DNA of 64,000 nucleotides from a virus: positions 1 through 64,000 of the IMG/VR virus record IMGVR_UViG_3300032069_000005; one strand, written 5' to 3'. Shown one piece after another: positions 252 to 31,194 of this stretch. The notes below the pieces were generated by a model. That model searched no databases. It worked only from the letters and a program-made list of their open reading frames with translations, and was not told where the DNA came from. How positions within the stretch are numbered: the stretch's first letter is position 1; every line of letters starts with the position of its first letter. The position numbers and the translations under genes are program-made.

Positions 252-812
252 ATGTTATACAGAGCCAAAGCAGATAAAGACGAAGGCGTTAAAGGATGTA
301 AACAAGTAGGAAGCGGCGATATATTTGGTTATGAATTAGTTAATACTTTTTTTGTTGATAATAGCGGTTTTGGTGGTGAGGGGATTGCATTGGATTTTAA
401 GGAATTTTTAAACAAAATTAGGGCTGGTTTTTATTATGGCATAACATCCGCCGGACAATTTCAAGTTTATATAGGCGAATTTAAACGAATATCAAGAGCC
501 AAGATATTCAAAGAGCAAGAAATTGCCAGCAGTAAACTAATTAGTAAGTCTTGCAGGGTAATTAATTATATTAATGGCGATAAAACTATTCGGTTATATA
601 CTACGGATATTTTACAATATAAGGGAGATAAGATTATTTTTAATTCTGGCGGTTATAAAACAGTTACCACAAAAAGCCGAATAAATCAATTTTTACCAGC
701 CGGAGTATATTTATATCAAAAAGATTACGAATGGTATATCGCAGACAATCGCAAAAAAAACATAGAAGGTGTTACTAAATTTTTTAATGGTATAGAATTG
801 CCAAGATATTAA
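252..812 (+). CDS. hypothetical phage protein
   Basis: 186-aa ORF, GGGAGGG SD upstream; no recognised motif. Confidence 0.7.
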   Translation: MLYRAKADKDEGVKGCKQVGSGDIFGYELVNTFFVDNSGFGGEGIALDFKEFLNKIRAGFYYGITSAGQFQVYIGEFKRISRAKIFKEQEIASSKLISKSCRVINYINGDKTIRLYTTDILQYKGDKIIFNSGGYKTVTTKSRINQFLPAGVYLYQKDYEWYIADNRKKNIEGVTKFFNGIELPRY

Positions 813-813
813 A

Positions 814-842
814 CAAGAGGCAGGGCGTTCCCTTGCCTTCTT
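814..842 (+). terminator. intergenic GC hairpin, possible terminator or processing site
   Basis: AAGAGGCAGGG-cgtt-CCCTTGCCTTCTT just after a stop codon; the core CCCTTGCCT also occurs in the hairpin region at ~77-118. Confidence 0.4.
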
Positions 843-1082
843 ATAAAAAAGGAGAATGAGATTATGTTAGAAATAACCGAAACAGACAAAATTATAATAG
901 GTAATAATATCGCAGATATTTTATTGTTAAAAGAAGATAGGGGATATAATCCCAAAAGATATAAAACTTCCTGGGGCAATAAAAGTGCTTTGGGAATATA
1001 TGAAGTTGTGAATAGACTATTTGAAGAAAAAGAATTTAGAATAATAAAGTTAGGGCAGATATACTAAAAGGGGGAATAAAAA

Positions 1083-1697
1083 ATGATTAATAAAAAAATA
1101 ACTTATGTTAGTGATGAAGGATTTGAATTTACTTTTGAACCGATTGAAGATACTTTAAAAATAAAGAAAATAAAAGACGGATTTGAAGCCAGATATTTAA
1201 CGCCGGATAATGACCCACAGAATCCTTTTGAAAACGGCGAAGGTAATGGGAATTTTTTTCATTGGAAGGATAGGGGAAGGGAAGAATTACTTAAATATTG
1301 CGAAGCTCTGGGCTATGACCCAGAAACAAGAGAAAAAATCGGCAAGGGAAATCCCGACGCTGTAAAAATAGATAAATACGAACATTCCAGCGTTTCTTAT
1401 TCTATTTCCGGCGAAGGTAGGCAATGTCAATGGGACACTTCGTCTGCTTGGGCGGTATGGCTACCAGACAATTGCCTATTAGACGAATTAAAGAAATTAA
1501 AGGGTAACGTCAGGCATAAGAAATGTATTGAATATGCAAGGCAAGCGTGCGAATTATTTAATCAATGGGCGAATGGGGATGTTTATTGTATTGTAAAAGA
1601 AACATACGATAAAAAGAAAAGCCCGATTGATTATGAGATAGTGGGTGGCATTTTTGGCAGAGATTATGCAGAGAAGGCATTAGAAACCGATATATAA
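1083..1697 (+). CDS. hypothetical phage protein
   Basis: 204-aa ORF with AGGGGG SD. Confidence 0.7.
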   Translation: MINKKITYVSDEGFEFTFEPIEDTLKIKKIKDGFEARYLTPDNDPQNPFENGEGNGNFFHWKDRGREELLKYCEALGYDPETREKIGKGNPDAVKIDKYEHSSVSYSISGEGRQCQWDTSSAWAVWLPDNCLLDELKKLKGNVRHKKCIEYARQACELFNQWANGDVYCIVKETYDKKKSPIDYEIVGGIFGRDYAEKALETDI

Positions 1698-1788
1698 AGG
1701 GGGATAATATGATTAGGTGCGGAAATCCAGAAATATTTTGTAATGAACGCCGTAGAGGATATTGCGAAAATGAAAATCAAGTAATTAA

Positions 1789-2175
1789 ATGACCCAGACT
1801 TACGCCAATTATTATAAGGCATACCGGAAGAAACGCCAGGAGCAAGACCCAGGCTATTTATCAGAGTATAGAAGAAAATATTATGATTATCTCAAAATAA
1901 ATAAGAAATGGCTCTTGCATTGGAAATGGGCTAAAGAACGCTGTAATAGAGTTAATGCCCCTAATTATCCGGCTTATGGCGGTAGAGGGATTAAATTTCT
2001 TTTGAGTAAAAAAGAAGCGAGGTTATTATGGGAAAGAGATAAGGCAGACCAATTATGGCGAGCAAGTTTAGACCGGATAGACCGGAACGGAAATTATGAA
2101 TTTGATAATTGCCGATTTATTGAGCATAAAACAAATTCTGGAAAGGATAAGAAAAAGGAGAGATATAAATGTTGA
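1789..2175 (+). CDS. HNH-type homing endonuclease
   Basis: RC..NAPNYPAYGGRGIK and SLDRIDRNGNYEFDNCRFI motifs typical of phage HNH endonucleases. Confidence 0.75.
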   Translation: MTQTYANYYKAYRKKRQEQDPGYLSEYRRKYYDYLKINKKWLLHWKWAKERCNRVNAPNYPAYGGRGIKFLLSKKEARLLWERDKADQLWRASLDRIDRNGNYEFDNCRFIEHKTNSGKDKKKERYKC

Positions 2176-2375
2176 GAATTAGATTAAAGAAAAAATTTTT
2201 ATATAAAGTTATAGATAAGGACAGAATGATTGAATATCATTGCCGATATACTTATTTAGATATTGGTTATAAAGGCAGTATTTATTTTATAACTATTACT
2301 CAAGAGGATTGGTGTAATTCATTTCTTGGGGCTACAATGCGGTGGAATAGTGGATTTTAATACAGAAAAAATCTC

Positions 2376-2417
2376 TTGTTAATATTATTACATTTGTGTT
2401 ATACTTATAGTAGGAGG
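2376..2417 (+). promoter_or_regulatory. sigma70-like promoter
   Basis: TTGTTA-18-TATACT with TGn extension, followed by TATA-GTAGGAGG. Confidence 0.55.
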
Positions 2418-2505
2418 TATATATGACTTTCTTAAAACGATTTTATCAATGGCTGGATAATTTATTGACTTCTATTTGTTAAGAGATAATGAGGAGAAAT
2501 AGATA

Positions 2506-3081
2506 ATGGGCAGAAGAAAAGGCTCAAAAAATAAACCTAAAATAATAACGCCTTCTTTAGAAAATCTTGAAGATGAACAAAGAGAACAGGTAGCTCCTGC
2601 GGATAGTATTGAAATAAAAAATCTCACTCCTGGCAATGATACTAAACAGGAATTAGGGGATATTCCTCCTATTATAAAGAGAGGTAGAGGCAGACCGAGA
2701 AAGAATCCGGTAGGAGAAGAAAGTGTAAAAGTGATTATAGGAGAAAAAATCTCCGTAGTAAATAGCCCTTCTCCTATATATACCAATATAAAGAATCTCA
2801 AAAGAGAAATACGCCAGCTAAAGAAACTTAAATTGCAATGTAGAGCCGGAAGCTCAGAAAGAATAAAATTACATCATAAGATTAAAGGAATGAAAATCCA
2901 ATTGGCTGAATTAAAGAAACAAAAAAATATTGCCCCAATAGAGCCAATAAAAGAAATAGATACCAAAAAATATAATAAAATAAATTTTACCGGAGAGTTA
3001 AGCCCACAAACAATTGAAAGGTTTAAAAAGAATTTTGGGATTGAATTTATTAATATAGGATATATGAGGGAGGATAAATGA
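2506..3081 (+). CDS. AT-hook-containing basic DNA-binding protein
   Basis: N-terminal GRRKGSKNK and internal KRGRGRPRK (AT-hook); C-terminal coiled coil. Confidence 0.6.
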   Translation: MGRRKGSKNKPKIITPSLENLEDEQREQVAPADSIEIKNLTPGNDTKQELGDIPPIIKRGRGRPRKNPVGEESVKVIIGEKISVVNSPSPIYTNIKNLKREIRQLKKLKLQCRAGSSERIKLHHKIKGMKIQLAELKKQKNIAPIEPIKEIDTKKYNKINFTGELSPQTIERFKKNFGIEFINIGYMREDK

Positions 3082-3836
3082 GAAAAACAATTTTTTGGTT
3101 AGTAATAATTGGGATTTTATTATTTACTTCTTTGGGATATTGTGCTAATTATAATGTGCAAAGTAATACACCACAAAATAATCAGGGTTATATTTTTATT
3201 AGCACTGGGCAGAAGCAAGGAGGCACAGAAATAGGCACTTGGACAGACCCAATTACAATACCGACTTTAAAGGGAGATAAAGGAGACCAGGGAATTCAAG
3301 GTATAGCCGGAAAGGATGGTTATACGCCTATTAAAAATATTGATTATTTTGATGGAGTAAATGGGGCAGATGGTTTAAATGGAAAAGATGTAGACCCCGC
3401 AACAGTTACTAATTTACAAAATGAAGATAATATTTTAGATAAAAAAATAATAGATATTGGTGATTTTAATAGTTATGTAAATAATAGACAAGATAATCAA
3501 TTACAAGACCACGAAAATAGGATAAATGCGTTAGAGGAAACTCAATACAATGTTGAAAGTGCAGTAAGAATATTAGATACCAAAAAAACTACATTGGAAA
3601 TTTATAATACATATGATATAAGGCACTCCAGAGAAATAGCAATAGGTATTCGGGTTATATATAAGTTAGGCAAATCATATCAAGATAGAGTGAATGAAAA
3701 AATAGAAACAAGATTGTCTAATTTAGAAAAAACATTAGACAATTCTCCTATAATTACGAAAGTAGTAGATATAAAAGGAAATACTAAATCTGTTCGGATA
3801 ACTGAAAATGGTTTAAAGATTGAAGGAGGATTTTAA
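3078..3836 (+). CDS. secreted/membrane protein with short collagen-like repeat and coiled coil
   Basis: hydrophobic signal peptide; GDKGDQGIQGIAGKDG (GXY) repeat. Confidence 0.6.
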   Translation: MRKTIFWLVIIGILLFTSLGYCANYNVQSNTPQNNQGYIFISTGQKQGGTEIGTWTDPITIPTLKGDKGDQGIQGIAGKDGYTPIKNIDYFDGVNGADGLNGKDVDPATVTNLQNEDNILDKKIIDIGDFNSYVNNRQDNQLQDHENRINALEETQYNVESAVRILDTKKTTLEIYNTYDIRHSREIAIGIRVIYKLGKSYQDRVNEKIETRLSNLEKTLDNSPIITKVVDIKGNTKSVRITENGLKIEGGF

Positions 3837-4302
3837 AATGATGAAGAATTGTTTTAAATCTAATATTTTTGTTCCAGATAATTATCCTGAAGTATTTTTT
3901 GACGAATTTTTATTGAGATGCAGAACTTGTGATAAATTTGAAATCTGCAGAGAAATAATAGAAAGAAAAAAATGTTTAAAGTAGCTTTCGTAACTTATAA
4001 ATCTGGTGTAATGCCCCTTAAATCTTTTGAGACAAAAGATGAGGCGGATAACTATATTCTGGAAATAGCCGAAAAGGAGTTGGGGATAAAGACCGGATAT
4101 ATAGAAGATACAGTAACCGGAAAAAGAGAAAAGATAGAGGATTTAAGATGAAAATCTATCGTTGTTGTATAGGAATTCACAAAAAATATAGATGTTTTGT
4201 TATTAGTATTTATAGGTTGAAGATTGAGATTATTTCTTTTGGAAGAAAAAGAATGTATTGTATTTCTTGGAATGATTGGGGCGAATAATAAGGAGGCTCA
4301 CA

Positions 4303-4710
4303 ATGGCTAAAAACGCTGGCTTTACCTGGCATTGTCATCACACTGTTTTATTAGAGTTTTGTTACGACTACAATAAAAGAAAAAACATTATTAAAACTAC
4401 TAAATCCAAAAACGAAATAGAAACTCGCTTACGCCTATTTAAATTTGTTAAAGGCAAACTCCCCGGTGGAATTATTAAGACTGGGCAAAAGCAAGCAAAA
4501 GCTTGGCAGAAGTGGCAGGAGGCTTGGGTCTCGTGCGGCACGTCTTGGCAGGAATACAATGAAGCTTGGCTGAAATACAATGCAGTGGGGCAGGAATGGA
4601 AAAAAGCTTTATCTAAATATAAAAACCGTTTAGAAGCCCTACACAAACAAGAATGTGGATGTAAGGAATGGAACGGAAAAGAGATAGTATTCCCAAAAGA
4701 AATAAAATGA
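4303..4710 (+). CDS. HxHH...CGC heptad-repeat protein (paralog of 11459-12010)
   Basis: AGGAGG SD before ATG 4303; WHCHH, RLRLFK, Trp heptads, HKQECGCKEWNGKEIVFPK. Confidence 0.7.
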   Translation: MAKNAGFTWHCHHTVLLEFCYDYNKRKNIIKTTKSKNEIETRLRLFKFVKGKLPGGIIKTGQKQAKAWQKWQEAWVSCGTSWQEYNEAWLKYNAVGQEWKKALSKYKNRLEALHKQECGCKEWNGKEIVFPKEIK

Positions 4711-5012
4711 TAATTAAATTTTATTGTGATAATGGGCACTGGTTTACCAAGACCGATGCCGAATTAAGAGAAGAAAAACAGTCTCAAAGATTCTGTAATT
4801 TATGCGGAAAAAAATTGCACATTGAACAACAAAGTTTAGAGAATGTAATAACTTTTGATTTAGAAGAGCAAATTAAAAATAATATTGATTCTTCTGTGGC
4901 TAAAATTGGATGGGACAATACTCTTGATATAATCCAAAGAAATAAAAACCAGGCGTGTTACAGATTATATAAAATTGAATTAGAAAAAAGAGGGTTTAAA
5001 ATAAATGAATAA
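4707..5012 (+). CDS. small zinc-ribbon protein
   Basis: CDNGH...CNLC; probable ATGA-overlap start at 4707. Confidence 0.5.
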   Translation: MIIKFYCDNGHWFTKTDAELREEKQSQRFCNLCGKKLHIEQQSLENVITFDLEEQIKNNIDSSVAKIGWDNTLDIIQRNKNQACYRLYKIELEKRGFKINE

Positions 5013-5706
5013 ATGCAAATGCGGAATAAAAATGCATAATATTTTAGATTATTTAGATAAAGAATCAGAAAGAAATCCAGATAGATTTCAATTAACTAAA
5101 TCCGCAGTATTAAAAATAGAACAGGCGATAATAGATACTGGATTAGATTTTGATGATTCTTGGGCAGAATTTAAAACTAATGGATTATTAAATAACTATC
5201 GGGGAATTCCGATAGAAATAGTGGAGGAAAAATGAGTTTACCAAAACCAAAAAGCAAATATGGATATAGTCAAAAAGAAGTTGAAATTATCTGTCAAGAA
5301 AGAAATATAAAAATTAAAGATTTTTGGAGAGCATTTGGCGTAAAGACGGTAATTGTTGAAGAGGGAGAAAACAGATATTTTATCTGTGATATAGAGCGAA
5401 CATTATATAAACTAAATTGTAAAGATGGAAAATTTCATTTACGGGATTAAAATAAAATGAATAATATTTGGACTTTAGATTTAGATACTGTCATTGAAAT
5501 TTATGATTTGGCTATGGCTCACGGAAAGAAGCCAGGAGATAGTATGCAGGAAGAATTTGACGAAGTATTAAAAAATAAACCGGATAGATTTACTTTTTTA
5601 GGTAATATTGGAGAAGATATGGATGTAGATTTATTAGTTGGCAATCTTCGTGAGAAAGGATTAAAAATATTAAATCTAAAAGAGACTGATAGGAGAAATC
5701 AATATA

Positions 5707-6093
5707 ATGGGCGAAATAATTTATAAATTACCCAAAGGCGTAGAATTATCAGACCACGTTAAAGAAAAGGCACTGGCTTATTTGGATATTCGTCTTTGTG
5801 GAATACATTATTACATTCCCATTACTAAAGAAATTAAAAAGCAGTTTAATTTAATAGAAAGAAAGGGAAAATTAACTCCTACTAATTGGAAAGCGTTTAG
5901 AAGATTAAGTGATATTATGCAACTTACGATTGATAGTATATATTTACAAGTGCGTGATGTAGTTTGTGCTGGAATAGAAGAATCTTTAGACCAAGAGTTA
6001 AAAGAAGGATTTTCTAAATTATTTGATAATTTTATTCATAAAAGAGTAAATGCAGAAATGACTAAAAAGCTACCTAAATCGGAGAAGAAATGA
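5707..6093 (+). CDS. hypothetical protein
   Basis: 128-aa ORF with AGGAG SD in a run of coupled small ORFs. Confidence 0.6.
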   Translation: MGEIIYKLPKGVELSDHVKEKALAYLDIRLCGIHYYIPITKEIKKQFNLIERKGKLTPTNWKAFRRLSDIMQLTIDSIYLQVRDVVCAGIEESLDQELKEGFSKLFDNFIHKRVNAEMTKKLPKSEKK

Positions 6094-6787
6094 AAAATAA
6101 AGATAAATATTATTCTAAAAATAAACGATGTAAATGTGGCAGATTAATCCGGAATTATTCTAAACAATGTAAAAAATGTCATTTAAAAAAATTGTCATTG
6201 TTTAGAAATAAATATTGTTTGAGAGAGAAATCTTTTTCTATATTATGTAGAATCTGTAAAAACAAAACAAATTGATAAATATGTTGCTTGGTTCAAAAGG
6301 AATTATTTATGATTTTTGATAATAAAAAAGAAAATATATATTGTCCTATCTGTCAGAAATGGATAGATAAGTTGGCAGGAACTTTAATTTTAGAAACAAT
6401 AGTTTATTGTATTTTTTGTTACAATGAAGAAAAAAACATAAAATCTTATTTAGGTTATATATGGGATTTAACGCCTTGTCAATATTTATTTGAAGGTAAC
6501 TGGTGCTTGAAACAAAATAAAATGATTGATTGTAATGGCAAAGAAGAAGGATGTAAATTTTTAGGGGAGGAAGAATGAAAGTAAAAGACTTGAAATTAAT
6601 TTTAAATGCTTTTCATAATGATTGCCCTATTGAATTTGAAGATGAAAACGGAAAGAGGCATACTATTTCTAATATTAAATCCGATAGTTGCCTTGTATTT
6701 TGGACTATGCTTTTAAGTGAAAGAAATTTTGATAAAAGAAAAGATGGGCAGGAAATTATTTGGCATAATTAATTTGATAGGTGATAA

Positions 6788-7825
6788 ATGAGTTTTTTAA
6801 ATTCTATATATGATGTATTGGGAATTTCTTTTCTTATGGAGAGAGAGCATAAGACCGAACAATATGAAGCAGAGCCGGAAACTGCCCCAGAAGAAAAGAA
6901 AGAAGTAATTATTCAAGAAATAAAACCAATTAAATTTATTTATAGACCAGATACACTCGAAAAATATATTGGTCAAATTCAAGCTAAAAAATTAGTAAGA
7001 ATGGCTTCGAATGTTATAATTAATAAGAAACCGTTGCATTTTTTGATTAGTGGACACGCAGGTATGGGGAAAACCACATTAGCACAAATTATAGGAAAAG
7101 GGCAATTAGGATATAATTTTTATTCTTATATTGGCAATTCATTTACTCAAGATACTTTAAAAGATTTTTTAATTAAGAATGAGGAAAGTGCCAGACCAAG
7201 TGTTTTATTTTTAGATGAAATTCATTCTGCTGATAAAGAAATTTTAGAATTTATGCTTCCAATAATTGAAGATTTTAAATTAAATGAAATAAAACTATCT
7301 CCATTCGTGATGATATGTGCTACAAATGAAAAGAGCGTTTTATTGAGAAAATCAAAACCCTTTTGTGATAGAATACAAATACAAGTTCAATTAGAAGATT
7401 ATAATGCAGAAGATATTAAAATAATATTAAAACAATATACTCAACAAGTCTATGATATAGAAATATCAGAAGAAGTTTATGATATATTATCGGTTAATAC
7501 TCGATATAATCCACGCATTTCCATTGCTTATATGGATTTATACATTGGTTGTAGAGATATTAAAACTGTTTTAGAAGCCAATCGAGTTATAAAAGATGGA
7601 ATAACGGATATAGATTTAAAGATATTGAATCATCTTAATTCTACTAATGGGAAACCGATAGGCGAGCAAGCATTATCAGTAATTGCAAATGTAGAGAGAA
7701 TAGATTATGTGGAATTACTTGAACCTTATCTTATGAGGAGAGATTTAATTTCTCGCACAAGTAGAGGAAGAATACTCACTGAGCAAGGGAAAATATTTTT
7801 ACAAGAATTAAAAAATGAAAAATAA
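6788..7825 (+). CDS. ruvB: RuvB-like Holliday junction branch-migration AAA+ ATPase
   Basis: RPDTLEKYIGQ, Walker A GHAGMGKTT, Walker B LFLDEIH, CATN sensor, EPYL...RTSRGRILT winged-helix C-terminus. Confidence 0.85.
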   Translation: MSFLNSIYDVLGISFLMEREHKTEQYEAEPETAPEEKKEVIIQEIKPIKFIYRPDTLEKYIGQIQAKKLVRMASNVIINKKPLHFLISGHAGMGKTTLAQIIGKGQLGYNFYSYIGNSFTQDTLKDFLIKNEESARPSVLFLDEIHSADKEILEFMLPIIEDFKLNEIKLSPFVMICATNEKSVLLRKSKPFCDRIQIQVQLEDYNAEDIKIILKQYTQQVYDIEISEEVYDILSVNTRYNPRISIAYMDLYIGCRDIKTVLEANRVIKDGITDIDLKILNHLNSTNGKPIGEQALSVIANVERIDYVELLEPYLMRRDLISRTSRGRILTEQGKIFLQELKNEK

Positions 7826-25149: not shown

Positions 25150-26193
25150 ATGGGTAGAGGCAGACCGAAAGGAAGCAAAAATAAAAAAATAACAACTCCC
25201 AAAACAGTTACAGAACATATTCAGGAGCAATCACCAAAAGTCAAGGAAATGATTAAAGAAGAAAAAGAGAAATTATCTAAAAAAAATGAGATTAACTCCG
25301 CACTCAGAAACTCGGTAAATGAACTTACAAAAAAATTTGGGCACGAAATCATTCACTTTGCTTCTGAAGAGCCGGAAAGAGAGAGAATTCCCACTGGAAT
25401 ACCTGAATTAGACAAGATGATTACTGGATTCCCTTCTGGTGCATTTTCAGTAATTTGGGGAAATAAAGGAAGCACAAAATCAACCACAGTATTGAATTTG
25501 ATTGCTCAAGCACAGAAACTTGGAAAACAATGCCTTTATTTAGATTTAGAAACCTCCTTTGATAATAAATGGGCGGATAAATGCGGAGTAGATAGAAATA
25601 AATTATTAATTGGTCATTTTGACAATGCTGAGCAAGCATTAGATACTGCAATAAAAATGAGCAAAGAGAAAGTTATAGATATAATTATATTAGACAGCGT
25701 CCAATCTCTTTCTCCCGAAGGAGAACAAGAAACTAAGAAAGGCGAAACCAAAAGCACTGGCGACGACACTGTGGCTTTATTGGCGAGGAGATTAAGTCAA
25801 TTTTTTAGAATGGATGCAGCAGGAAATTATAGAGGTAATATAACATTTATTTTAATCGGGCAAAGTAGGATGGATTTAAGCGGATATATTAAATTGGAAA
25901 AATTAAGTGGAGGAAAAGCAATCGCACATTGGGCTACTTTAATTATAAAGGCATATCGGTCAACTAAGGCAGATGCACCAAGATTTAAATTTGAAATCAA
26001 AGGTAAGAAAAAAGAAATCCCAATTGGATTTGAGATTTGTTATCGTTTAGAAAAAAAGAAGATTAGTGGAACTGCTCCTGAAGAAACAGAAGTAAGAGCA
26101 AATTTTTATAATGAATTTGGTTTTGTAGAACCTACAGAAAAACAGATAAAAGAATTATATTCGGATTGGATTTCTTTTGAAGAAAATTCTTGA
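25150..26193 (+). CDS. recA: RecA/UvsX-like recombinase with N-terminal AT-hook
   Basis: IPTGIPELD, variant Walker A GNKGSTKST, YLDLE, IILDSV, ARRLSQ, GQSR, SGGKAIAH. Confidence 0.85.
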   Translation: MGRGRPKGSKNKKITTPKTVTEHIQEQSPKVKEMIKEEKEKLSKKNEINSALRNSVNELTKKFGHEIIHFASEEPERERIPTGIPELDKMITGFPSGAFSVIWGNKGSTKSTTVLNLIAQAQKLGKQCLYLDLETSFDNKWADKCGVDRNKLLIGHFDNAEQALDTAIKMSKEKVIDIIILDSVQSLSPEGEQETKKGETKSTGDDTVALLARRLSQFFRMDAAGNYRGNITFILIGQSRMDLSGYIKLEKLSGGKAIAHWATLIIKAYRSTKADAPRFKFEIKGKKKEIPIGFEICYRLEKKKISGTAPEETEVRANFYNEFGFVEPTEKQIKELYSDWISFEENS

Positions 26194-26742: not shown

Positions 26743-28983
26743 ATGCTTAATCTTCCAATCCAAAATATATCCTCAATTGGTCGTGAAATAATTCTCTTTA
26801 ATCGACAACAAAGCGGAGAGCTTACAATAATGAGAGATTTATTGTTCAGTCCCTATTATTATGTTCCTTCTCCTACTGGAATATTTAGAGGATACTTTGG
26901 CGGAAAATATGATAAAGTTACTTGTAAAAATCCCCGGGAAATAAAAGATAAACGAAATGTAAAAACAGATGGGGAAAGTGATGTTCCATATGTTCGTCGT
27001 TATCTACTTGATAAAGTAAATATAATTAAATCTCCTACGAGATGGATTATGTTTGATATTGAGACTCTTAGTAAAATTGTTCCTAATCCATTGGTTGCCC
27101 CAGACCCAATTACTTCAATAACCGCATATGATAATTATGAAAAAAAGTATATTCAATTTTGGTGCGAAAATTATCCATCTGAATATGAACTTATAGATGC
27201 GTTTATCAATTATATTAAGGAAAGGAAGCCAGATTTACTCCTGGCGTATAATATAAATGGATTTGATATGCCTTATTTGGTTACTCGTTTTTCTGACTTC
27301 GGAGAAAAGGTTAGCCCCATAGGACAAATTAAAAAAAGAAATGGATACCCAGAAGGAATCAGTATAGTCGACTATTATGAACTCATTAAAAAAGTATATA
27401 AATATAAGAGGCATACTTTAGATTTTATTTATTCTGATGAATTTAAAGTTCCCCAGAATTTTATAAAATATAGATTTAATGAGATTAGCCCAATCATTAA
27501 AGAAAAGAATCTGGAAGATGTAAAAAAAATGGTCGCCTTAGAAAATAAATTGCATCTCATTGATTATTTTGATGAACAAAGGAGAATTGCAAAAGTTCTT
27601 TGGGAAGATTTATGTCATTTTAGTGTATCTATCGATGGATTGATTTTGCAAACTGCGAAATCTAAAGGCGTAGTCTTACCGAGTAAACCAGACGAAGAAG
27701 AAAAACTTCGTCGAATAGAGGAAGATGAAATCGAAGGCGGATATGTATTTGCCCAACCAGGAAAATATGATGACGCTTCTTTACTAGATATTTCTGGGAC
27801 ATACCCGAATCTAATTACTACATTTAATCTTGACCCTGTAAATAAGAAGAAAATCCCCAATTCGCAGACAGTAACTATCAGAAAAATCCACATAGAACAG
27901 AATCCCAACGCCATTGTGCCAACAGTTGCCAATAGATTAATCGCTTCTCGTAAACAAATCCAAAAAGAACTCGAAGGAAAAACAGGCGAAGAATATGATT
28001 TATTAAAGAAAAAAGATGATGCACATAAATCGCTTAATAATGTGGTCTACGGGATTTTGCTTTTTAAGAATTCTCGTATATATGATAAAGACATCGCCGA
28101 TTGCATTACCTATTTAGCGAGGTTCTTAATTCGATATACCAAATTTGCTTTAAGAAAATTGGGATATTCAGTCATTTCTTCAGACACCGATTCTATTTTT
28201 GTTCATTCCAGAGATTATGAGAAAATAGAAAAATTATGCAATGAAACATTAATTCCTAACTGGCTTAGACACTTTGGCAAAACAGAAGGAACTCTGAGAT
28301 TTAAATATGAAGGATATTTTGAGAATGTTGTTTTTGAAGCACCAAAACATTACAGAGGCAATTTTGTTACTGCTAAGGGCGAACATAAAATGATAAATAA
28401 AGGCATCGAAATTGTTCGCAAAGATTCTTCTAAATTTCAAGAAGAATTTTTAGAGGAATTATATAATAGAATTTTAAAAAATGAAAGTGAGCAAACCATC
28501 TCTAATTGGATATTAGAACAAATAAAAGAATTACCCAATAAACCATTGAAAAATATTGCATTTCCTTTTCAAATAGTCCAAAAAATTTATAATAGTATTC
28601 CTATATCTATTCGAGCACTTCAATATACTGACGAAATAATTCCCAATTTTAGTCAAGATTATCATAATGAATTATATTATATTTATGTTAAACCATTTGG
28701 AACAGCAGAAAGACATTCCAAAAGTATGCGAAAGAATAAAGATACTGGAAAAAAGGAATTAAAAGAATCACATACTATAATAAATAAGAACGTCCTCGCC
28801 TTTGACGAAAATACTGACCACATAAAAGAAGTAGATTATTCAGAAATGATTAGACGCAATATTTTAGATAAGGCGGAAAAGCTCTTTGATGTTTTGGGAT
28901 GGAATAAAGAATTGATTGGGATAAAAAAGAAAATTTCTAAAAAAGATGCAATTGCCGAACTCAAAAAAAGAGGATTATTATAA
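26743..28983 (+). CDS. polB: family B DNA polymerase with 3'-5' exonuclease
   Basis: FDIET, YN..GFD, DISGTYP, K..NNVVYG, SDTDS, KHY, KGIEIVRKD. Confidence 0.92.
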   Translation: MLNLPIQNISSIGREIILFNRQQSGELTIMRDLLFSPYYYVPSPTGIFRGYFGGKYDKVTCKNPREIKDKRNVKTDGESDVPYVRRYLLDKVNIIKSPTRWIMFDIETLSKIVPNPLVAPDPITSITAYDNYEKKYIQFWCENYPSEYELIDAFINYIKERKPDLLLAYNINGFDMPYLVTRFSDFGEKVSPIGQIKKRNGYPEGISIVDYYELIKKVYKYKRHTLDFIYSDEFKVPQNFIKYRFNEISPIIKEKNLEDVKKMVALENKLHLIDYFDEQRRIAKVLWEDLCHFSVSIDGLILQTAKSKGVVLPSKPDEEEKLRRIEEDEIEGGYVFAQPGKYDDASLLDISGTYPNLITTFNLDPVNKKKIPNSQTVTIRKIHIEQNPNAIVPTVANRLIASRKQIQKELEGKTGEEYDLLKKKDDAHKSLNNVVYGILLFKNSRIYDKDIADCITYLARFLIRYTKFALRKLGYSVISSDTDSIFVHSRDYEKIEKLCNETLIPNWLRHFGKTEGTLRFKYEGYFENVVFEAPKHYRGNFVTAKGEHKMINKGIEIVRKDSSKFQEEFLEELYNRILKNESEQTISNWILEQIKELPNKPLKNIAFPFQIVQKIYNSIPISIRALQYTDEIIPNFSQDYHNELYYIYVKPFGTAERHSKSMRKNKDTGKKELKESHTIINKNVLAFDENTDHIKEVDYSEMIRRNILDKAEKLFDVLGWNKELIGIKKKISKKDAIAELKKRGLL

Positions 28984-29126
28984 TATGGATTTATCTAAAT
29001 TATCTAATGAAGAATTAATGAAAATAGCGAAAATATCTCCTAAATTTGCGGGGGAAGTATCGAAAAAGATACTCCTTGCTTCCAGCGAGGAAGGTGGGGT
29101 GCAAGTCCCTAACCCCGCTCCAAATA
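28954..29126 (+). repeat. 173-bp direct repeat, copy 1 (identical to 30007-30179)
   Basis: covers the polB 3' end, SD, Mom N-terminus and tRNA-like element; offset 1053 bp. Confidence 0.95.
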
Positions 29127-29917
29127 AAGAATTAATAATTAAAAAAAAAGAAGAATTGATGCACTCTGATTTTGATTCTTCAAATTTTATGATAGAATTA
29201 ATTGAACCAAAAATGACATATGAGTGGATGATGTATAAACATTATGCACATAAAATACCTCCGGTTATTAAATATTGTTACGGTTTATTTAAAAATAAAC
29301 AACTCGTGGGGGTTTGTGTTTATGGAATATTGGCAAATAAAGAATATAATAATGGAAAATGTTTGTTTAAAAATTATCGAGTTGATGTTTTAGAATTAAA
29401 AAGATTAGTTGTAGATGATGATTTGCCAAAAAATACATTATCTTATTTTGTTTCAAAAACATTAAAAATGCTTCCACAACCAACGTGCGTTGTTAGTTAT
29501 GCAGATAGTAATCAAAATCATCACGGATATATTTATCAGGCTACCAATTGGTTATATACAGGTATGGGAAGAGGGAAATTAGCAATAATAGACAAATCAA
29601 CGGGAGAGGAAATTCACGAGAAAACGATATATGACAGGTATGGGACAAATAATATAGAAATTTTAAAAACTAAATTTGATTTTGATACAAAAATTTTAAA
29701 AGGAAAATATCGTTATTTAAAATTTATTGGAAATCATAAACAAAAAAAAGAAATGTTACACTCATTAAAATGGAAACTTTTTCCATATCCAAAAGGCGAT
29801 AATATCAATTATGATGCTTCTTATAAAATTAAAAATTTAAATATAAATAAAAAAGGAATAATTCAGGAAAAGAGAGAGGAAGATAGACAGACAGAAAAAC
29901 AGGAGGAAGAGAGATGA
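28985..29917 (+). CDS. mom: Mom-like GNAT adenine-modification enzyme, copy 1
   Basis: KHYAH, ELKRL, PKNTLS, VSYADSNQNHHGYIYQATNWLYTG, K.RY, PYPK; GAGGA SD before ATG 28985. Confidence 0.8.
   Translation: MDLSKLSNEELMKIAKISPKFAGEVSKKILLASSEEGGVQVPNPAPNKELIIKKKEELMHSDFDSSNFMIELIEPKMTYEWMMYKHYAHKIPPVIKYCYGLFKNKQLVGVCVYGILANKEYNNGKCLFKNYRVDVLELKRLVVDDDLPKNTLSYFVSKTLKMLPQPTCVVSYADSNQNHHGYIYQATNWLYTGMGRGKLAIIDKSTGEEIHEKTIYDRYGTNNIEILKTKFDFDTKILKGKYRYLKFIGNHKQKKEMLHSLKWKLFPYPKGDNINYDASYKIKNLNINKKGIIQEKREEDRQTEKQEEER
29048..29122 (+). tRNA. non-canonical tRNA-Gly(UCC)-like element embedded in frame in mom copy 1
   Basis: GCGGGGG/ACCCCGC-T-CCA acceptor, GTAT/ATAC D-stem, CCTTG-CTTCCAG-CGAGG anticodon arm, TGGGG-TGCAAGT-CCCTA T arm; 75 nt. 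Confidence 0.8.
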
Positions 29918-29919
29918 TA
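29857..29919 (+). repeat. 63-bp purine-rich direct repeat, copy 1 (one mismatch to 30874-30936)
   Basis: encodes the IIQEKREEDRQTEKQEEER* tail plus SD and ATG of the next gene. Confidence 0.92.
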
Positions 29920-30036
29920 TTGAAATTTCAACAACATAATGGTTGGGTATATGTTTCTGATTTATATAAAGTAGAAACCAGACAAATGTCAAAAAAAGAA
30001 GCACTCGCCGAACTCAAAAAAAGAGGATTATTATAA
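29914..30036 (+). CDS. 40-aa chimeric junction ORF
   Basis: MILKFQQHNG... resembles the start of 30931 (MIVKIIQENG); ends SKKEALAELKKRGLL like the PolB C-terminus SKKDAIAELKKRGLL. Confidence 0.55.
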   Translation: MILKFQQHNGWVYVSDLYKVETRQMSKKEALAELKKRGLL

Positions 30037-30179
30037 TATGGATTTATCTAAATTATCTAATGAAGAATTAATGAAAATAGCGAAAATATCTCCTAAATTT
30101 GCGGGGGAAGTATCGAAAAAGATACTCCTTGCTTCCAGCGAGGAAGGTGGGGTGCAAGTCCCTAACCCCGCTCCAAATA
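30007..30179 (+). repeat. 173-bp direct repeat, copy 2
   Basis: identical to 28954-29126. Confidence 0.95.
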
Positions 30180-30934
30180 TAAATAAAATCATAAAACAAA
30201 AATATGATAAAATACAAGACAATAAATCACAATCGAAAGAGATAAAAAATTTTAATTTAAAAGATTTAAATATGAAAGAATTGGAATTTCAAATAACTAA
30301 AGAATTTATTGTTAAGAATCATTACAGTCATACAATTTCTTCATCTATAAAAGCAAGTATTGGATTTTTTTATAATAATAAATTAGTTACTGCTATTGTT
30401 TATGGTCATCCAATTGGAATTAATGTTGGTTCTTGGTTGCAAGTTCCTGAAGGAAGTTATGCCGAATTAATTAGAGTTTTTAGTGTTGATGAGTTACCAA
30501 AAAATACGGAAAGTTATTGTTTGGCAAAGTCATTTGAATTTTTGAAGAAAAATAAACCAGAATTAAAATATTTAATTAGTTATGCAGACCCCACTCAAGG
30601 GCACGTAGGTTATATTTATCAAGCAACTAATTGGTATTATGTTGGTAAACAGATAGGAATGGATAGAATTTTTAAAATTGATGGCAAACAAGTTCATAGA
30701 AGAACCGCCAATGCTGCTTATGGAACATCTTCAGTTAAAAAATTATCAGAATTATTAGGCAAAAGATTTGAAGTATCAATAACATATCCAAAACACATTT
30801 ATTTAATGTGTTTGGGTTCTCGTAAAGAAAAAAAAGAATGGTATAATAAATTCAAACAATTACCATATCCTAAAATAATTCAAGAAAAGAGAGAGGAAGA
30901 TAGACAGACAGAAAAACAGGAGGAAGAGAGATGA
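30038..30934 (+). CDS. mom: Mom-like GNAT adenine-modification enzyme, copy 2
   Basis: KNHYSH, ELIRV, PKNTES, ISYADPTQGHVGYIYQATNWYYVG, KHIY, PYPK. Confidence 0.8.
   Translation: MDLSKLSNEELMKIAKISPKFAGEVSKKILLASSEEGGVQVPNPAPNINKIIKQKYDKIQDNKSQSKEIKNFNLKDLNMKELEFQITKEFIVKNHYSHTISSSIKASIGFFYNNKLVTAIVYGHPIGINVGSWLQVPEGSYAELIRVFSVDELPKNTESYCLAKSFEFLKKNKPELKYLISYADPTQGHVGYIYQATNWYYVGKQIGMDRIFKIDGKQVHRRTANAAYGTSSVKKLSELLGKRFEVSITYPKHIYLMCLGSRKEKKEWYNKFKQLPYPKIIQEKREEDRQTEKQEEER
30101..30175 (+). tRNA. non-canonical tRNA-Gly(UCC)-like element embedded in frame in mom copy 2
   Basis: identical 75-nt cloverleaf to 29048-29122. Confidence 0.8.
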
Positions 30935-30936
30935 TA
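30874..30936 (+). repeat. 63-bp direct repeat, copy 2
   Basis: matches 29857-29919. Confidence 0.92.
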
Positions 30937-31194
30937 GTAAAAATTATTCAAGAAAATGGAGCATTGTTTTATGATGGATTTGAAAAAATCAGATATGAAT
31001 ATAAAACCAGTGAAGAAATGGAAACCATCGATACAAACGCTATGTGGATAAACAGTAAGTTGCCTCTGAGCGGAATTTTGATTATAGGTCGTAGAAAACC
31101 GATAATTGGAACTGACCCAGAATTTACTATTAGAACAAATGGGGAGACATATCTTCTTAATGATGAAGGTAAGACGATAGAAAGGATTAGATAA
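30931..31194 (+). CDS. conserved small phage protein
   Basis: ends YLLNDEGKTIERI, a common phage motif. Confidence 0.6.
   Translation: MIVKIIQENGALFYDGFEKIRYEYKTSEEMETIDTNAMWINSKLPLSGILIIGRRKPIIGTDPEFTIRTNGETYLLNDEGKTIERIR

Follow-up and report, generated by a model that had tools for sequence, protein, structure and literature searches.

A tRNA-Gly(UCC)-like element inside tandem phage mom genes as a candidate dedicated glycyl carrier for DNA modification

Criteria for the Mom family include an HTH-like insertion that the enzyme needs to be active, and DNA that contains carbamoylmethyl-adenine. Mom of phage Mu moves glycine from Gly-tRNA-Gly onto N6 of adenine in double-stranded DNA (Silva et al., Nat Commun 2026, PMC13219725). 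The enzyme requires Gly-tRNA-Gly with a ribo-A76, takes all three E. coli isoacceptors and refuses Gly-tRNA-Ala; Mu is described as scavenging any host tRNA-Gly isoacceptor, and the available text of that paper mentions no phage tRNA (PMC13219725). An earlier note on the DNA analysed here, made from the letters alone, had named glycyl-tRNA(Gly) as the Mom donor, and for Mu this biochemistry is correct (PMC13219725). A second system with comparable features is cellular: according to the available parts of two papers, the staphylococcal non-proteogenic tRNA-Gly(UCC) species NP1-NP3 supply glycine to FmhB/FemA/FemB while escaping EF-Tu, have a T loop with TGC/TGT for TTC and lack G18G19 (PMC7826273, PMC4574755). 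They are stand-alone genes, and their lineage is reported only in staphylococci in the text available (PMC7826273).

The window, i.e. the whole 64,000-nt stretch analysed, belongs to a virus record of 86,231 nt. On its plus strand, as for all features below, it carries a family-B DNA polymerase gene (26743-28983; PF00136 E 1e-31, PF03104 E 1.5e-14), and two mom genes lie directly behind it, the placement that the earlier note had given. Both ORFs, Mom A (28985-29917, 310 aa) and Mom B (30038-30934, 298 aa), belong to the Mom family as that note had proposed: they match Pfam PF25680 at E 2.1e-38 (A; 132.5-133.6 bits) and 3e-41 (B; 141.8-142.8 bits; cut-off 27.1) and phrog_1384 at E 2e-53 and 6e-51, while no NCBIfam model matched the two ORFs. 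The family profile matches the Mom of PDB 8bv8 at E 2.6e-22. The Mom (GNAT) domains lie at 29186-29794 and 30266-30874 (PF25680); in Mom A the order is N-terminal extension, tRNA-encoded linker, Mom domain and acidic tail. The two paralogues share 45% identity over 327 columns, identical ends included. An arginine (ELxR) and a serine (LSYF) are invariant in all 16 aligned Moms, both paralogues and 12 of the 24 loci from a Mom core search included; locus L010 was dropped from this alignment (A4) and from A6 for two stops in the matched range. In 8bv8_A they align with the R of ELNR and with an alanine, taken as S124A because the paper states that the crystal is S124A, and we infer that they correspond to the catalytic residues of Mu Mom, R111 and S124. 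The likeness to Mu (PDB 8bv8, PF25680) thus comprises the same family, putative catalytic counterparts in both paralogues and the same class of co-substrate. Unlike Mu, the mom genes of the window hold their own tRNA-Gly-like RNA inside the ORF, and two subtypes stand in tandem behind the polymerase. Of 301 cultured-phage records with a match to Mom B, none covers at least 80% of it, so no isolate with the Mom N-terminal extension was found.

The tandem arrangement is framed by repeats. Sequence comparison within the window reveals an exact repeat of 173 nt at 28954-29126 and 30007-30179, of which copy 1 contains the polymerase 3' end (28954-28983, the final 30 nt of the gene), a ribosome-binding site, the first 21 codons of Mom from the start codon on, and then the tRNA-like element with 4 nt beyond it. 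Its 3' limit, previously placed 4 nt past the CCA, stands, but the 5' side runs 94 nt further (173 nt in total). A looser repeat (D1) spans 224 nt at 93% around it. A 3' repeat pair (D2; 29857-29942 and 30874-30959, 90%) ends both mom genes and in copy 1 includes the common acidic C-terminal tail, the stop and the start of the next small ORF. This is a 40-aa junction ORF (29914-30036), without a match in Pfam and PHROG searches, whose start resembles the 87-aa ORF after the Mom cassette (30931-31194) and whose end resembles the polymerase C-terminus. The first codons of the 87-aa ORF, to which Pfam and PHROG assign no function, are duplicated in it, and the junction ORF has the look of a scar left when two Mom cassettes came to stand in tandem. 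In Logan contigs from two DNA runs of a sediment metagenome (contigs only; X1 may be the source sample of the window), the piece 28954-29126 has a depth of ∼2.6 to 3.3 times that of neighbouring pieces, a junction piece (29890-30036) is present, and the core pieces of Mom A and B are equally deep (22.7 and 22.1). The equal core depths and the contig piece across the junction ORF fit a real tandem arrangement. The best explanation is that the window has two Mom subtypes recombined into tandem through common flanks, which would also give each subtype an identical copy of the element. The whole virus record contains exactly two elements and two mom genes, and no other tRNA. A promoter/terminator scan returned 21 promoter-like sites against 15.2 ± 4.0 expected, none conserved before both copies.

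The element itself is a 75-mer, identical in both genes, at codons 22-46 of Mom A (29048-29122) and of Mom B (30101-30175); these limits, as given in the earlier note, are also the exact coordinates of the covariance-model matches (copy 1: R1 97.2 bits, R2 82.8 bits). The full cloverleaf with anticodon UCC claimed for it is the RNAfold minimum-energy structure, with -33.9 kcal/mol against -23.1 ± 3.2 for shuffles (z -3.37; 0/200 as good). As read from the sequence, the acceptor stem has six pairs and a G7.A66 mismatch, and the D, anticodon and T stems have four, five and five pairs. The four arms come with a canonical 7-nt anticodon loop (CUUCCAG, i.e. U33, UCC and the purine A37), U73 and an encoded CCA. 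By contrast, the conserved tRNA core and elbow (U8, G18G19, U54-U55-C56) is disrupted by A8, a D loop CGAAAAAG without GG, and a T loop UGCAAGU with G at 55. Standard finders failed on it: ARAGORN found 0 tRNAs in the 64-kb window, and Rfam gave no tRNA (RF00005) match at E<=10, neither for 28800-31100 nor for the full record of 86,231 nt. These misses mark the element as non-canonical, not as absent.

Compared with ordinary phage tRNA genes, the element shares the cloverleaf, the encoded CCA and the phage-borne location, but it is missed by ARAGORN and RF00005, is overlapped by the gene of its putative user enzyme and belongs to a group with degenerate decoding features. Like the tRNA-like structures of plant RNA viruses (RF00233), it is a tRNA-shaped fold within a longer coding RNA, and its T arm resembles the tymovirus consensus; its RF00233 score (15.7 bits, E 3.7) lies below the gathering score of 40, and it differs in being a true four-arm cloverleaf without a pseudoknot, in a DNA phage and linked to a tRNA-using enzyme. 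The likeness to the staphylococcal tRNAs, as far as the available parts of those papers describe them, lies in the UCC anticodon, the UGC T-loop triplet and the lack of G18G19, and also in the proposed role, i.e. glycine for a non-ribosomal GNAT-type transferase with escape from EF-Tu. However, the T stems differ (staphylococcal A49-U65, U50-A64 and A51-U63 versus U49-A65, G50.U64 and G51-C63), and the element is viral and ORF-embedded, with DNA as the proposed final acceptor. The relation is one of analogy, not membership.

We then compared the element with its relatives. Six distinct variants are present in the lineage, i.e. that of the window and five from related uncultured phages. In their ungapped MAFFT alignment (A3), with the structure read from the window sequence, 94.4% of cells are paired and 8 of 21 pairs have changed on both sides; none of 500 shuffles reached this level of pairing and compensation, and slid controls were 35-51% paired. 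All three loops are identical in the six variants, while the stem-encoded peptide differs radically (ILLASSEEGG versus TCGTSSSESS). This comparison of sequences confirms the 75-nt cloverleaf as real and no chance fold. In 6/6 variants U73 and the encoded CCA have stayed unchanged although third-codon positions there could vary synonymously; the AT-rich genome would favour those codons anyway. A GC-rich phage locus (L038) has an element with the anticodon and T loops of the window and a perfect 7-pair acceptor stem; it lies in another reading frame, ends 7 nt before the likely Mom start and is called tRNA-Gly(tcc) by ARAGORN. A single-protein search with the L038 Mom matched only its own contig.

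Several searches gave only false leads. The exact 30-nt search of viral contigs had no match, and among cultured phages the window 75-mer produced only short blastn matches attributable to chance. Among the stretches from loop-pattern searches (25 and 15), only the known lineage and L038 passed the stem filter; one candidate (L034) was a GC-rich coding false positive. By blastn the T arm of L038 also matched Yuavirus phages (LKO4, SN1), within a CDS and with neither a model nor an ARAGORN match, and this was dismissed as chance.

Covarying Gly cloverleafs beside other Mom homologues, whose absence the earlier note had listed as a refutation, were found in the lineage variants, at L038 and at 25 of 79 diverse viral Mom loci; these 79 are what remains of the 80 loci, out of 546, that most resemble one Mom once the contig of the query itself (L078) is set aside. 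Within this set from the best 80 of 546, model R2 matches 24 loci at E<=6e-8 and ARAGORN adds one (L090). All 25 elements overlap the 3' end of the Mom ORF, beginning 0-3 nt past a YPK motif in 20 of the 23 loci that have it; 18 lie on the Mom strand and 7 on the opposite strand. No further R2 match at E<=1 occurs in the 255,660 bases of these loci. Because the set was chosen by its resemblance to a single Mom (best 80 of 546) and contains three pairs of duplicates (L080/L081, L111/L113 and L107/L114), 25/79 is not a population frequency; the members of these pairs count separately here, whereas each pair counts once in the 28 distinct sequences discussed below. Elements were undetectable at 54 of the 79 loci (best 80 of 546), with the nearest Mom core relatives (0/22; 24 loci in that search) and at prokaryote-genome Mom loci (0/9). 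The dedicated-donor module proposed earlier gains support from the Mom-family match, the Mu biochemistry and the covarying cloverleafs, but the element does not accompany every Mom. Related elements also occur inside canonical tRNA gene arrays of large phages; neither of two such records, 27% and 4% complete, has a Mom match.

In the lineage of the window the element lies in frame with Mom, 63 nt after its start codon, and only the Mom frame is open through it, so that ribosomes must cross it to make Mom in all seven lineage copies; most variants have no usable Mom start codon behind it. The element-encoded residues of Mom B fall within residues 17-48, where the AlphaFold2 pLDDT is below 50, and the element is read through as a predicted disordered linker of Mom, particular to this lineage. 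In a relative (L028) the tRNA-encoded linker joins polymerase and Mom in a single ORF of 1066 aa. Such a position would also suit a cis-acting tRNA mimic, in which the cloverleaf stays in the mom message as an operator, binding of Mom or GlyRS blocks ribosomes and thereby restrains production of a potentially toxic enzyme, and the carrier is never set free. The tRNA-mimic operator in the E. coli thrS leader is likewise a tRNA-shaped fold in a longer coding RNA, and ThrRS binds and represses its own message. Excision would destroy the message, since the element is inside the ORF and most variants lack a Mom start behind it, and the available part of PMC3378877 reports tight control of Mu mom expression and calls the gene toxic. 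However, the opposite-strand elements (7/25 in the set from the best 80 of 546) and the intergenic one of L038 indicate that a cis role cannot be the common function of the family. The retention of U73 and CCA in 6/6 variants, which AT-rich codon preference fits too, and the occurrence of related elements in canonical tRNA arrays also speak against such a mimic, which we consider improbable. A cis role could also act alongside a donor role.

According to the available text of PMC9976931, U73, G1-C72, C2-G71, C35 and C36 make up bacterial glycine identity, and TacT, a GNAT toxin, recognises U73 and G71. The element of the window has the whole set that the earlier note had listed (G1-C72, C2-G71, G3-C70, U73, C35 and C36); of this set, G3-C70 is not kept in relatives, three of which have A3-U70 and a fourth A3.C70. 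Among 28 distinct Mom-linked elements, loci from the best 80 of 546 included, G1, C2, G71 and C72 are each present in 28/28, the anticodon CC in 28/28 and U73 in 26/28. In the other stem pairs covariation is unconstrained (17/21 pairs in the model-fitted alignment; alignments A5 and A7 were fitted to the model structure, so that pair counts lean towards it). As in the staphylococcal cell-wall tRNA-Gly, decoding or elbow features (U33, G18G19 and U55) are often missing: the canonical CUUCCAG loop occurs in only 9/28 distinct elements, A33 and 8-nt loops are common, and G stands at the second T-loop position in 14/28.

These patterns bear on two further readings. The element might serve translation or counter-defence as a spare glycine tRNA or a decoy (e.g. 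replacing a toxin-hit host tRNA-Gly), with its linkage to Mom incidental. tRNA genes are common in phages, some toxins attack tRNA-Gly (e.g. FaRel2, as excerpts of the literature describe), and the anticodon loop of the lineage is canonical (U33, UCC, A37). We nevertheless regard this as very unlikely: it leaves unexplained that all 24 model matches in 255,660 bases touch Mom (best 80 of 546), the canonical 7-nt loop is confined to 9/28 distinct elements, the lineage lacks U8, G18G19 and U55, and standard finders reject the element. Alternatively, it could be a recombination or mobility landmark, i.e. the tRNA-derived edge of a mobile Mom cassette (an att remnant or hot spot) whose RNA no longer works. 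The element always sits right at an end of the Mom gene, on one strand or the other, which is consistent with this, as are the exact repeat flanking two unlike Mom cores and the chimeric junction ORF that records recombination. Yet compensating changes keep four stems across locus GC contents of 27-55% and the GlyRS marks are invariant, neither of which a DNA landmark needs; a full-length tRNA is kept instead of a 3' fragment, and no integrase stood out among the ORFs read beside the element. We give this reading the lowest probability, a very slight one.

We favour, with a probability of roughly 0.7, the reading that the element is a dedicated, non-translating glycyl carrier for Mom. We infer the following route by which the RNA would be released and charged, kept out of translation and used by Mom: (i) host RNase P would cut the polymerase-mom transcript at G1, and the 3' end would be trimmed to the encoded CCA; (ii) host GlyRS would charge the RNA via G1-C72, C2-G71, U73, C35 and C36; (iii) Mom would take the glycyl group off the RNA 3' end and attach it to adenine N6 in the double-stranded DNA of the phage, with subsequent rearrangement to carbamoylmethyl-adenine, as shown for Mu; and (iv) A8, the lack of G18G19 and G55 would keep the carrier off EF-Tu and the ribosome. 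With the carrier kept off translation, DNA modification would neither drain nor depend on the translating tRNA-Gly pool of the host. Because the same 75 nt are also 25 linker codons, a given transcript could be either translated into Mom or cut for the carrier. Several points weigh against the glycyl carrier. In this lineage, cutting out the element would destroy the message, and in L028 it would cost the polymerase message its stop and Mom its start; the lack of the G18G19/U55 elbow, together with A8 and G7.A66, might hamper RNase P or GlyRS besides EF-Tu; G3-C70 is replaced by A3-U70 in three relatives and by A3.C70 in one; no element is detectable at many Mom genes; and a private carrier is not required, since Mu Mom works with ordinary host tRNA-Gly. 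More tentatively, and at less than even odds, the 75 nt may serve at once as linker codons and carrier precursor, with ribosome versus RNase P setting the ratio of enzyme to co-substrate and capping a potentially toxic enzyme; in many phage lineages Mom genes may be accompanied by an overlapping, degenerate tRNA-Gly that can be charged but does not decode, which would make them self-sufficient modules for DNA hypermodification, and a polymerase-fused Mom may work on the replisome in one relative.

We found no published description of Mom-linked glycine tRNAs, and the neighbourhood data (>8000 contigs) of PMC13219725, a source available in part, could bear on novelty. The use of charged tRNA-Gly by Mom for DNA modification was shown only in 2026, and the available text pictures the phage as scavenging host tRNA. 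If many Mom genes do have a chargeable, non-decoding tRNA-Gly of their own, an aminoacyl carrier reserved for nucleic-acid chemistry has arisen repeatedly in phages, as a viral equivalent of the cell-wall tRNAs of staphylococci. Some phage 'tRNA genes', in part missed by standard finders, would then form a class unrelated to codon usage, and enzyme plus tRNA would be a two-part module with which Mom homologues could be reconstituted or transferred to other hosts. The lineage of the window would be a rare testable case of a tRNA gene that doubles as coding sequence of its putative user enzyme.

Both 75-nt cloverleaf elements lie within tandem ORFs at 28985–29917 (Mom A) and 30038–30934 (Mom B), which belong to the Mom family, as the earlier note had proposed (PF25680, E = 2.1e-38 and 3e-41; phrog_1384), and which are placed immediately behind a DNA polymerase gene, also as it had said; this polymerase is of family B. 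The virus record is uncultured, 86,231 nt long and ∼30% GC, with the window as its first 64 kb, and every DNA run in which the stretch occurs carries the label sediment metagenome. A GAGGA site precedes each start codon (28985 and 30038) by 10 nt, and both proteins keep the residues aligned to R111 and S124 of the phage Mu enzyme (by alignment, with an inferred numbering offset). A RecA-family protein is encoded at 25150–26193 (PF00154, E = 3.8e-33), two genes upstream of the polymerase, which sets the Mom cassettes within a replication/recombination gene block.

The identical 75-mer is present at 29048–29122 and 30101–30175. Identity ends 4 nt past the CCA, as had been claimed, but the 5′ side continues for 94 nt beyond the 75-mer (exact repeat block: 28954–29126 = 30007–30179). 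The cloverleaf is the minimum-energy structure by RNAfold (z = −3.37; 0/200 shuffles equally stable), and the GlyRS identity marks previously listed are all there (i.e. G1–C72, C2–G71, G3–C70, anticodon CC and U73), together with a CUUCCAG loop and an encoded CCA. The element thus has the fold and identity marks of tRNA-Gly but fails canonical core features of tRNA: it carries A8, a UGCAAGU T loop and a D loop that lacks GG. Its acceptor stem has a G7·A66 mismatch. ARAGORN calls no tRNA in the window, and with the Rfam tRNA model neither the region nor the whole virus record gives a match at E ≤ 10. The sole Rfam echo in the region is a sub-threshold match to the tymovirus tRNA-like structure (RF00233, 15.7 bits against a threshold of 40); at 30107–30191 the likeness is between the element's T arm and the tymovirus consensus (GGGGUGCAA.UCCC), and it is probably a coincidence given a score so far under threshold.

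Comparison within the lineage establishes that the element is a real RNA structure. A syntenic relative, L001, contains the polymerase, Mom and the same downstream genes, with the element in the same position, and searching viral and metagenome contigs with loop patterns added further variants, giving six distinct ones altogether. Across these six, the three loops are identical, 8 of the 21 stem pairs are altered on both sides in a compensating way (94.4% of cells paired) and, in the anticodon stem, four of five pairs covary; none of 500 shuffles reaches the observed level, and slid controls are 35–51% paired. Because the loops are kept and the stems covary while the stem-encoded peptide differs radically among variants, the constraint acts on RNA rather than protein. 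A recombination landmark is a very improbable reading of the element, since it leaves unexplained both this covariation and the invariance of the identity marks.

The association with Mom extends beyond the lineage. A looser pattern recovered L038, a phage locus that appears GC-rich, whose element (59% GC) has the same anticodon and T loops, a perfect acceptor stem of 7 pairs and an ARAGORN call of tRNA-Gly(tcc); it is intergenic, in a different reading frame, and its 3′ end lies 7 nt ahead of the likely Mom start. Sixteen Mom domains were aligned, and the best 80 of 546 relatives were then fetched as a diverse set of viral Mom loci; the 79 other than the query's own contig form a sample biased towards one Mom and including three duplicate pairs. 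A first covariance model (R1), built from the six variants, matches 13 of these 79 among the best 80 relatives; ARAGORN gives calls in 12 loci, six of them new relative to R1. A second model (R2), built from both sets of hits, matches 24/79 at E ≤ 6e-8, and L090, called by ARAGORN alone, brings the count to 25/79; R2 has no further match at E ≤ 1 across the 255,660 bases of the 79 loci. The covarying Gly cloverleaf that the earlier note proposed to look for beside other Mom homologues is found in six lineage variants, L038 and 25 diverse loci. ARAGORN, R1 and R2 detect none in the 22 core relatives closest to Mom A or in nine prokaryote-genome Mom loci.

In all 25 loci (within L079–L142), the Mom ORF reaches the tRNA without a stop and extends into it by 4–116 nt, and the element starts 0–3 nt past a C-terminal YPK motif in 20 of the 23 motif-bearing loci. 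In same-strand cases the tRNA often begins in frame directly past this motif, and the stop codon of Mom is supplied by a TAA within the D arm of the tRNA (GTGTAA; e.g. L080, L111 and L121). Eighteen elements share the strand of Mom and seven are opposite. A cis-acting tRNA mimic, through which Mom or GlyRS throttles translation, possibly in addition to a donor role, is conceivable but unlikely in the window's lineage; given the seven antisense elements and the intergenic one of L038, such a role cannot be the common function of the family.

Among 28 distinct elements, G1, C2, G71, C72 and the anticodon CC are invariant, and U73 is present in 26. The remaining stem pairs covary freely (17/21 pairs, 96.7% paired in a model-fitted alignment). 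The canonical CUUCCAG loop occurs in only nine, A33 and 8-nt loops being common; the second T-loop position is G in 14, and an encoded CCA is missing from about half. A spare or decoy decoding tRNA is an improbable reading, leaving both the degenerate anticodon loops and the exclusive contact with Mom unexplained.

The glycyl-tRNA-Gly donor named in the earlier note agrees with PMC13219725: there, Gly-tRNA-Gly supplies the glycine that Mu Mom attaches to N6 of adenine in dsDNA, the ribo-A76 is required, all three isoacceptors of E. coli can serve and Gly-tRNA-Ala is rejected, and the authors picture host tRNA scavenging. PMC9976931 gives U73, G1–C72, C2–G71, C35 and C36 as the bacterial glycine identity set and reports recognition of U73 and G71 by TacT, a GNAT toxin. 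Staphylococcal non-proteogenic tRNA-Gly(UCC), as portrayed in PMC7826273 and PMC4574755, are donors for Fem transferases, with TGC/TGT replacing TTC in the T loop, no G18G19, weak EF-Tu binding and recognition via the D and T arms. Mom-linked elements follow the same logic, keeping charging marks and losing translation marks; the window element is analogous to that staphylococcal lineage only and lies outside it. Searches of abstracts and article texts returned no published description of tRNAs adjacent to Mom genes.

Tandem pairs of related Gly-like elements also occur within canonical tRNA gene arrays of large-phage contigs (L037 5073–5229, L040 13450–13606, L041 8855–9011, L042 494–650, L045 2615–2771, L046 11888–12042, L047 129–285 and L053 5757–5913). 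Where loops were seen or pattern-matched, one member of the pair carries CUACCAG, and its partner combines CUUCCAG with a UGC-type T loop; ARAGORN detects the adjacent tRNAs of the array, not these elements. No Mom was detected in two partial records of such phages.

Mom A and Mom B are of different subtypes (45% identical overall, identical ends included), and relatives have one each: A in L001; B in L026, L027, L028 and L033. Between the two genes, a 40-aa ORF starts like the downstream 87-aa ORF and ends like the polymerase; judging from these likenesses, it is a scar left when recombination placed two cassettes in tandem. In the sediment run X1, independent contigs contain both Mom cores at equal depth, plus a piece spanning the junction. 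At L026 1329–1360, the B-type Mom ends right after PYPKIIQIEKNEQ, just ahead of the acidic tail shared in the window, so this tail seems dispensable. A second, weaker Mom-like match (L032 22–252, minus strand; 37–38% over 79–89 residues, cut by the locus end) shares a contig with L001, at a distance of ∼6 kb from the main Mom gene. The L001 polymerase (681–4001) has 1106 aa versus 746 aa in the window; its extra segment looks like a putative intein or homing-endonuclease insertion.

In the lineage of the window, only one frame is open from the upstream start to the Mom domain in 7/7 copies, with tRNA base 1 at codon position 1. Within 210 nt downstream of the element, TTG is the sole possible start in L026, L028 and L033, and L027 has no ATG, GTG or TTG. 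An AlphaFold2 model of Mom B (20-sequence alignment) has a confident GNAT core; residues 17–48, which contain the tRNA-encoded 22–46 (7 sequences deep there), have pLDDT <50 and no secondary structure, so the 25 tRNA-encoded residues look like a passenger linker. In L028, an ORF at 4181–7381 (minus strand, 1066 aa) runs from a family-B polymerase via the tRNA-encoded linker into a B-type Mom domain, with neither a stop nor a start codon separating its parts, and its product may be a polymerase-tethered DNA modifier.

We consider it probable (roughly 70%), from sequence evidence, that the element serves Mom as a dedicated glycyl carrier with no part in translation. This reading draws on known kinds (i.e. 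tRNA-dependent Mom, non-proteogenic tRNA-Gly and phage tRNAs); the in-frame embedding and polymerase fusion are particular to the window's lineage. RNase P and 3′ trimming would release the carrier from the polymerase–mom transcript, host GlyRS would charge it and Mom would use it, and in the window's lineage each transcript would give either a Mom protein or a carrier.
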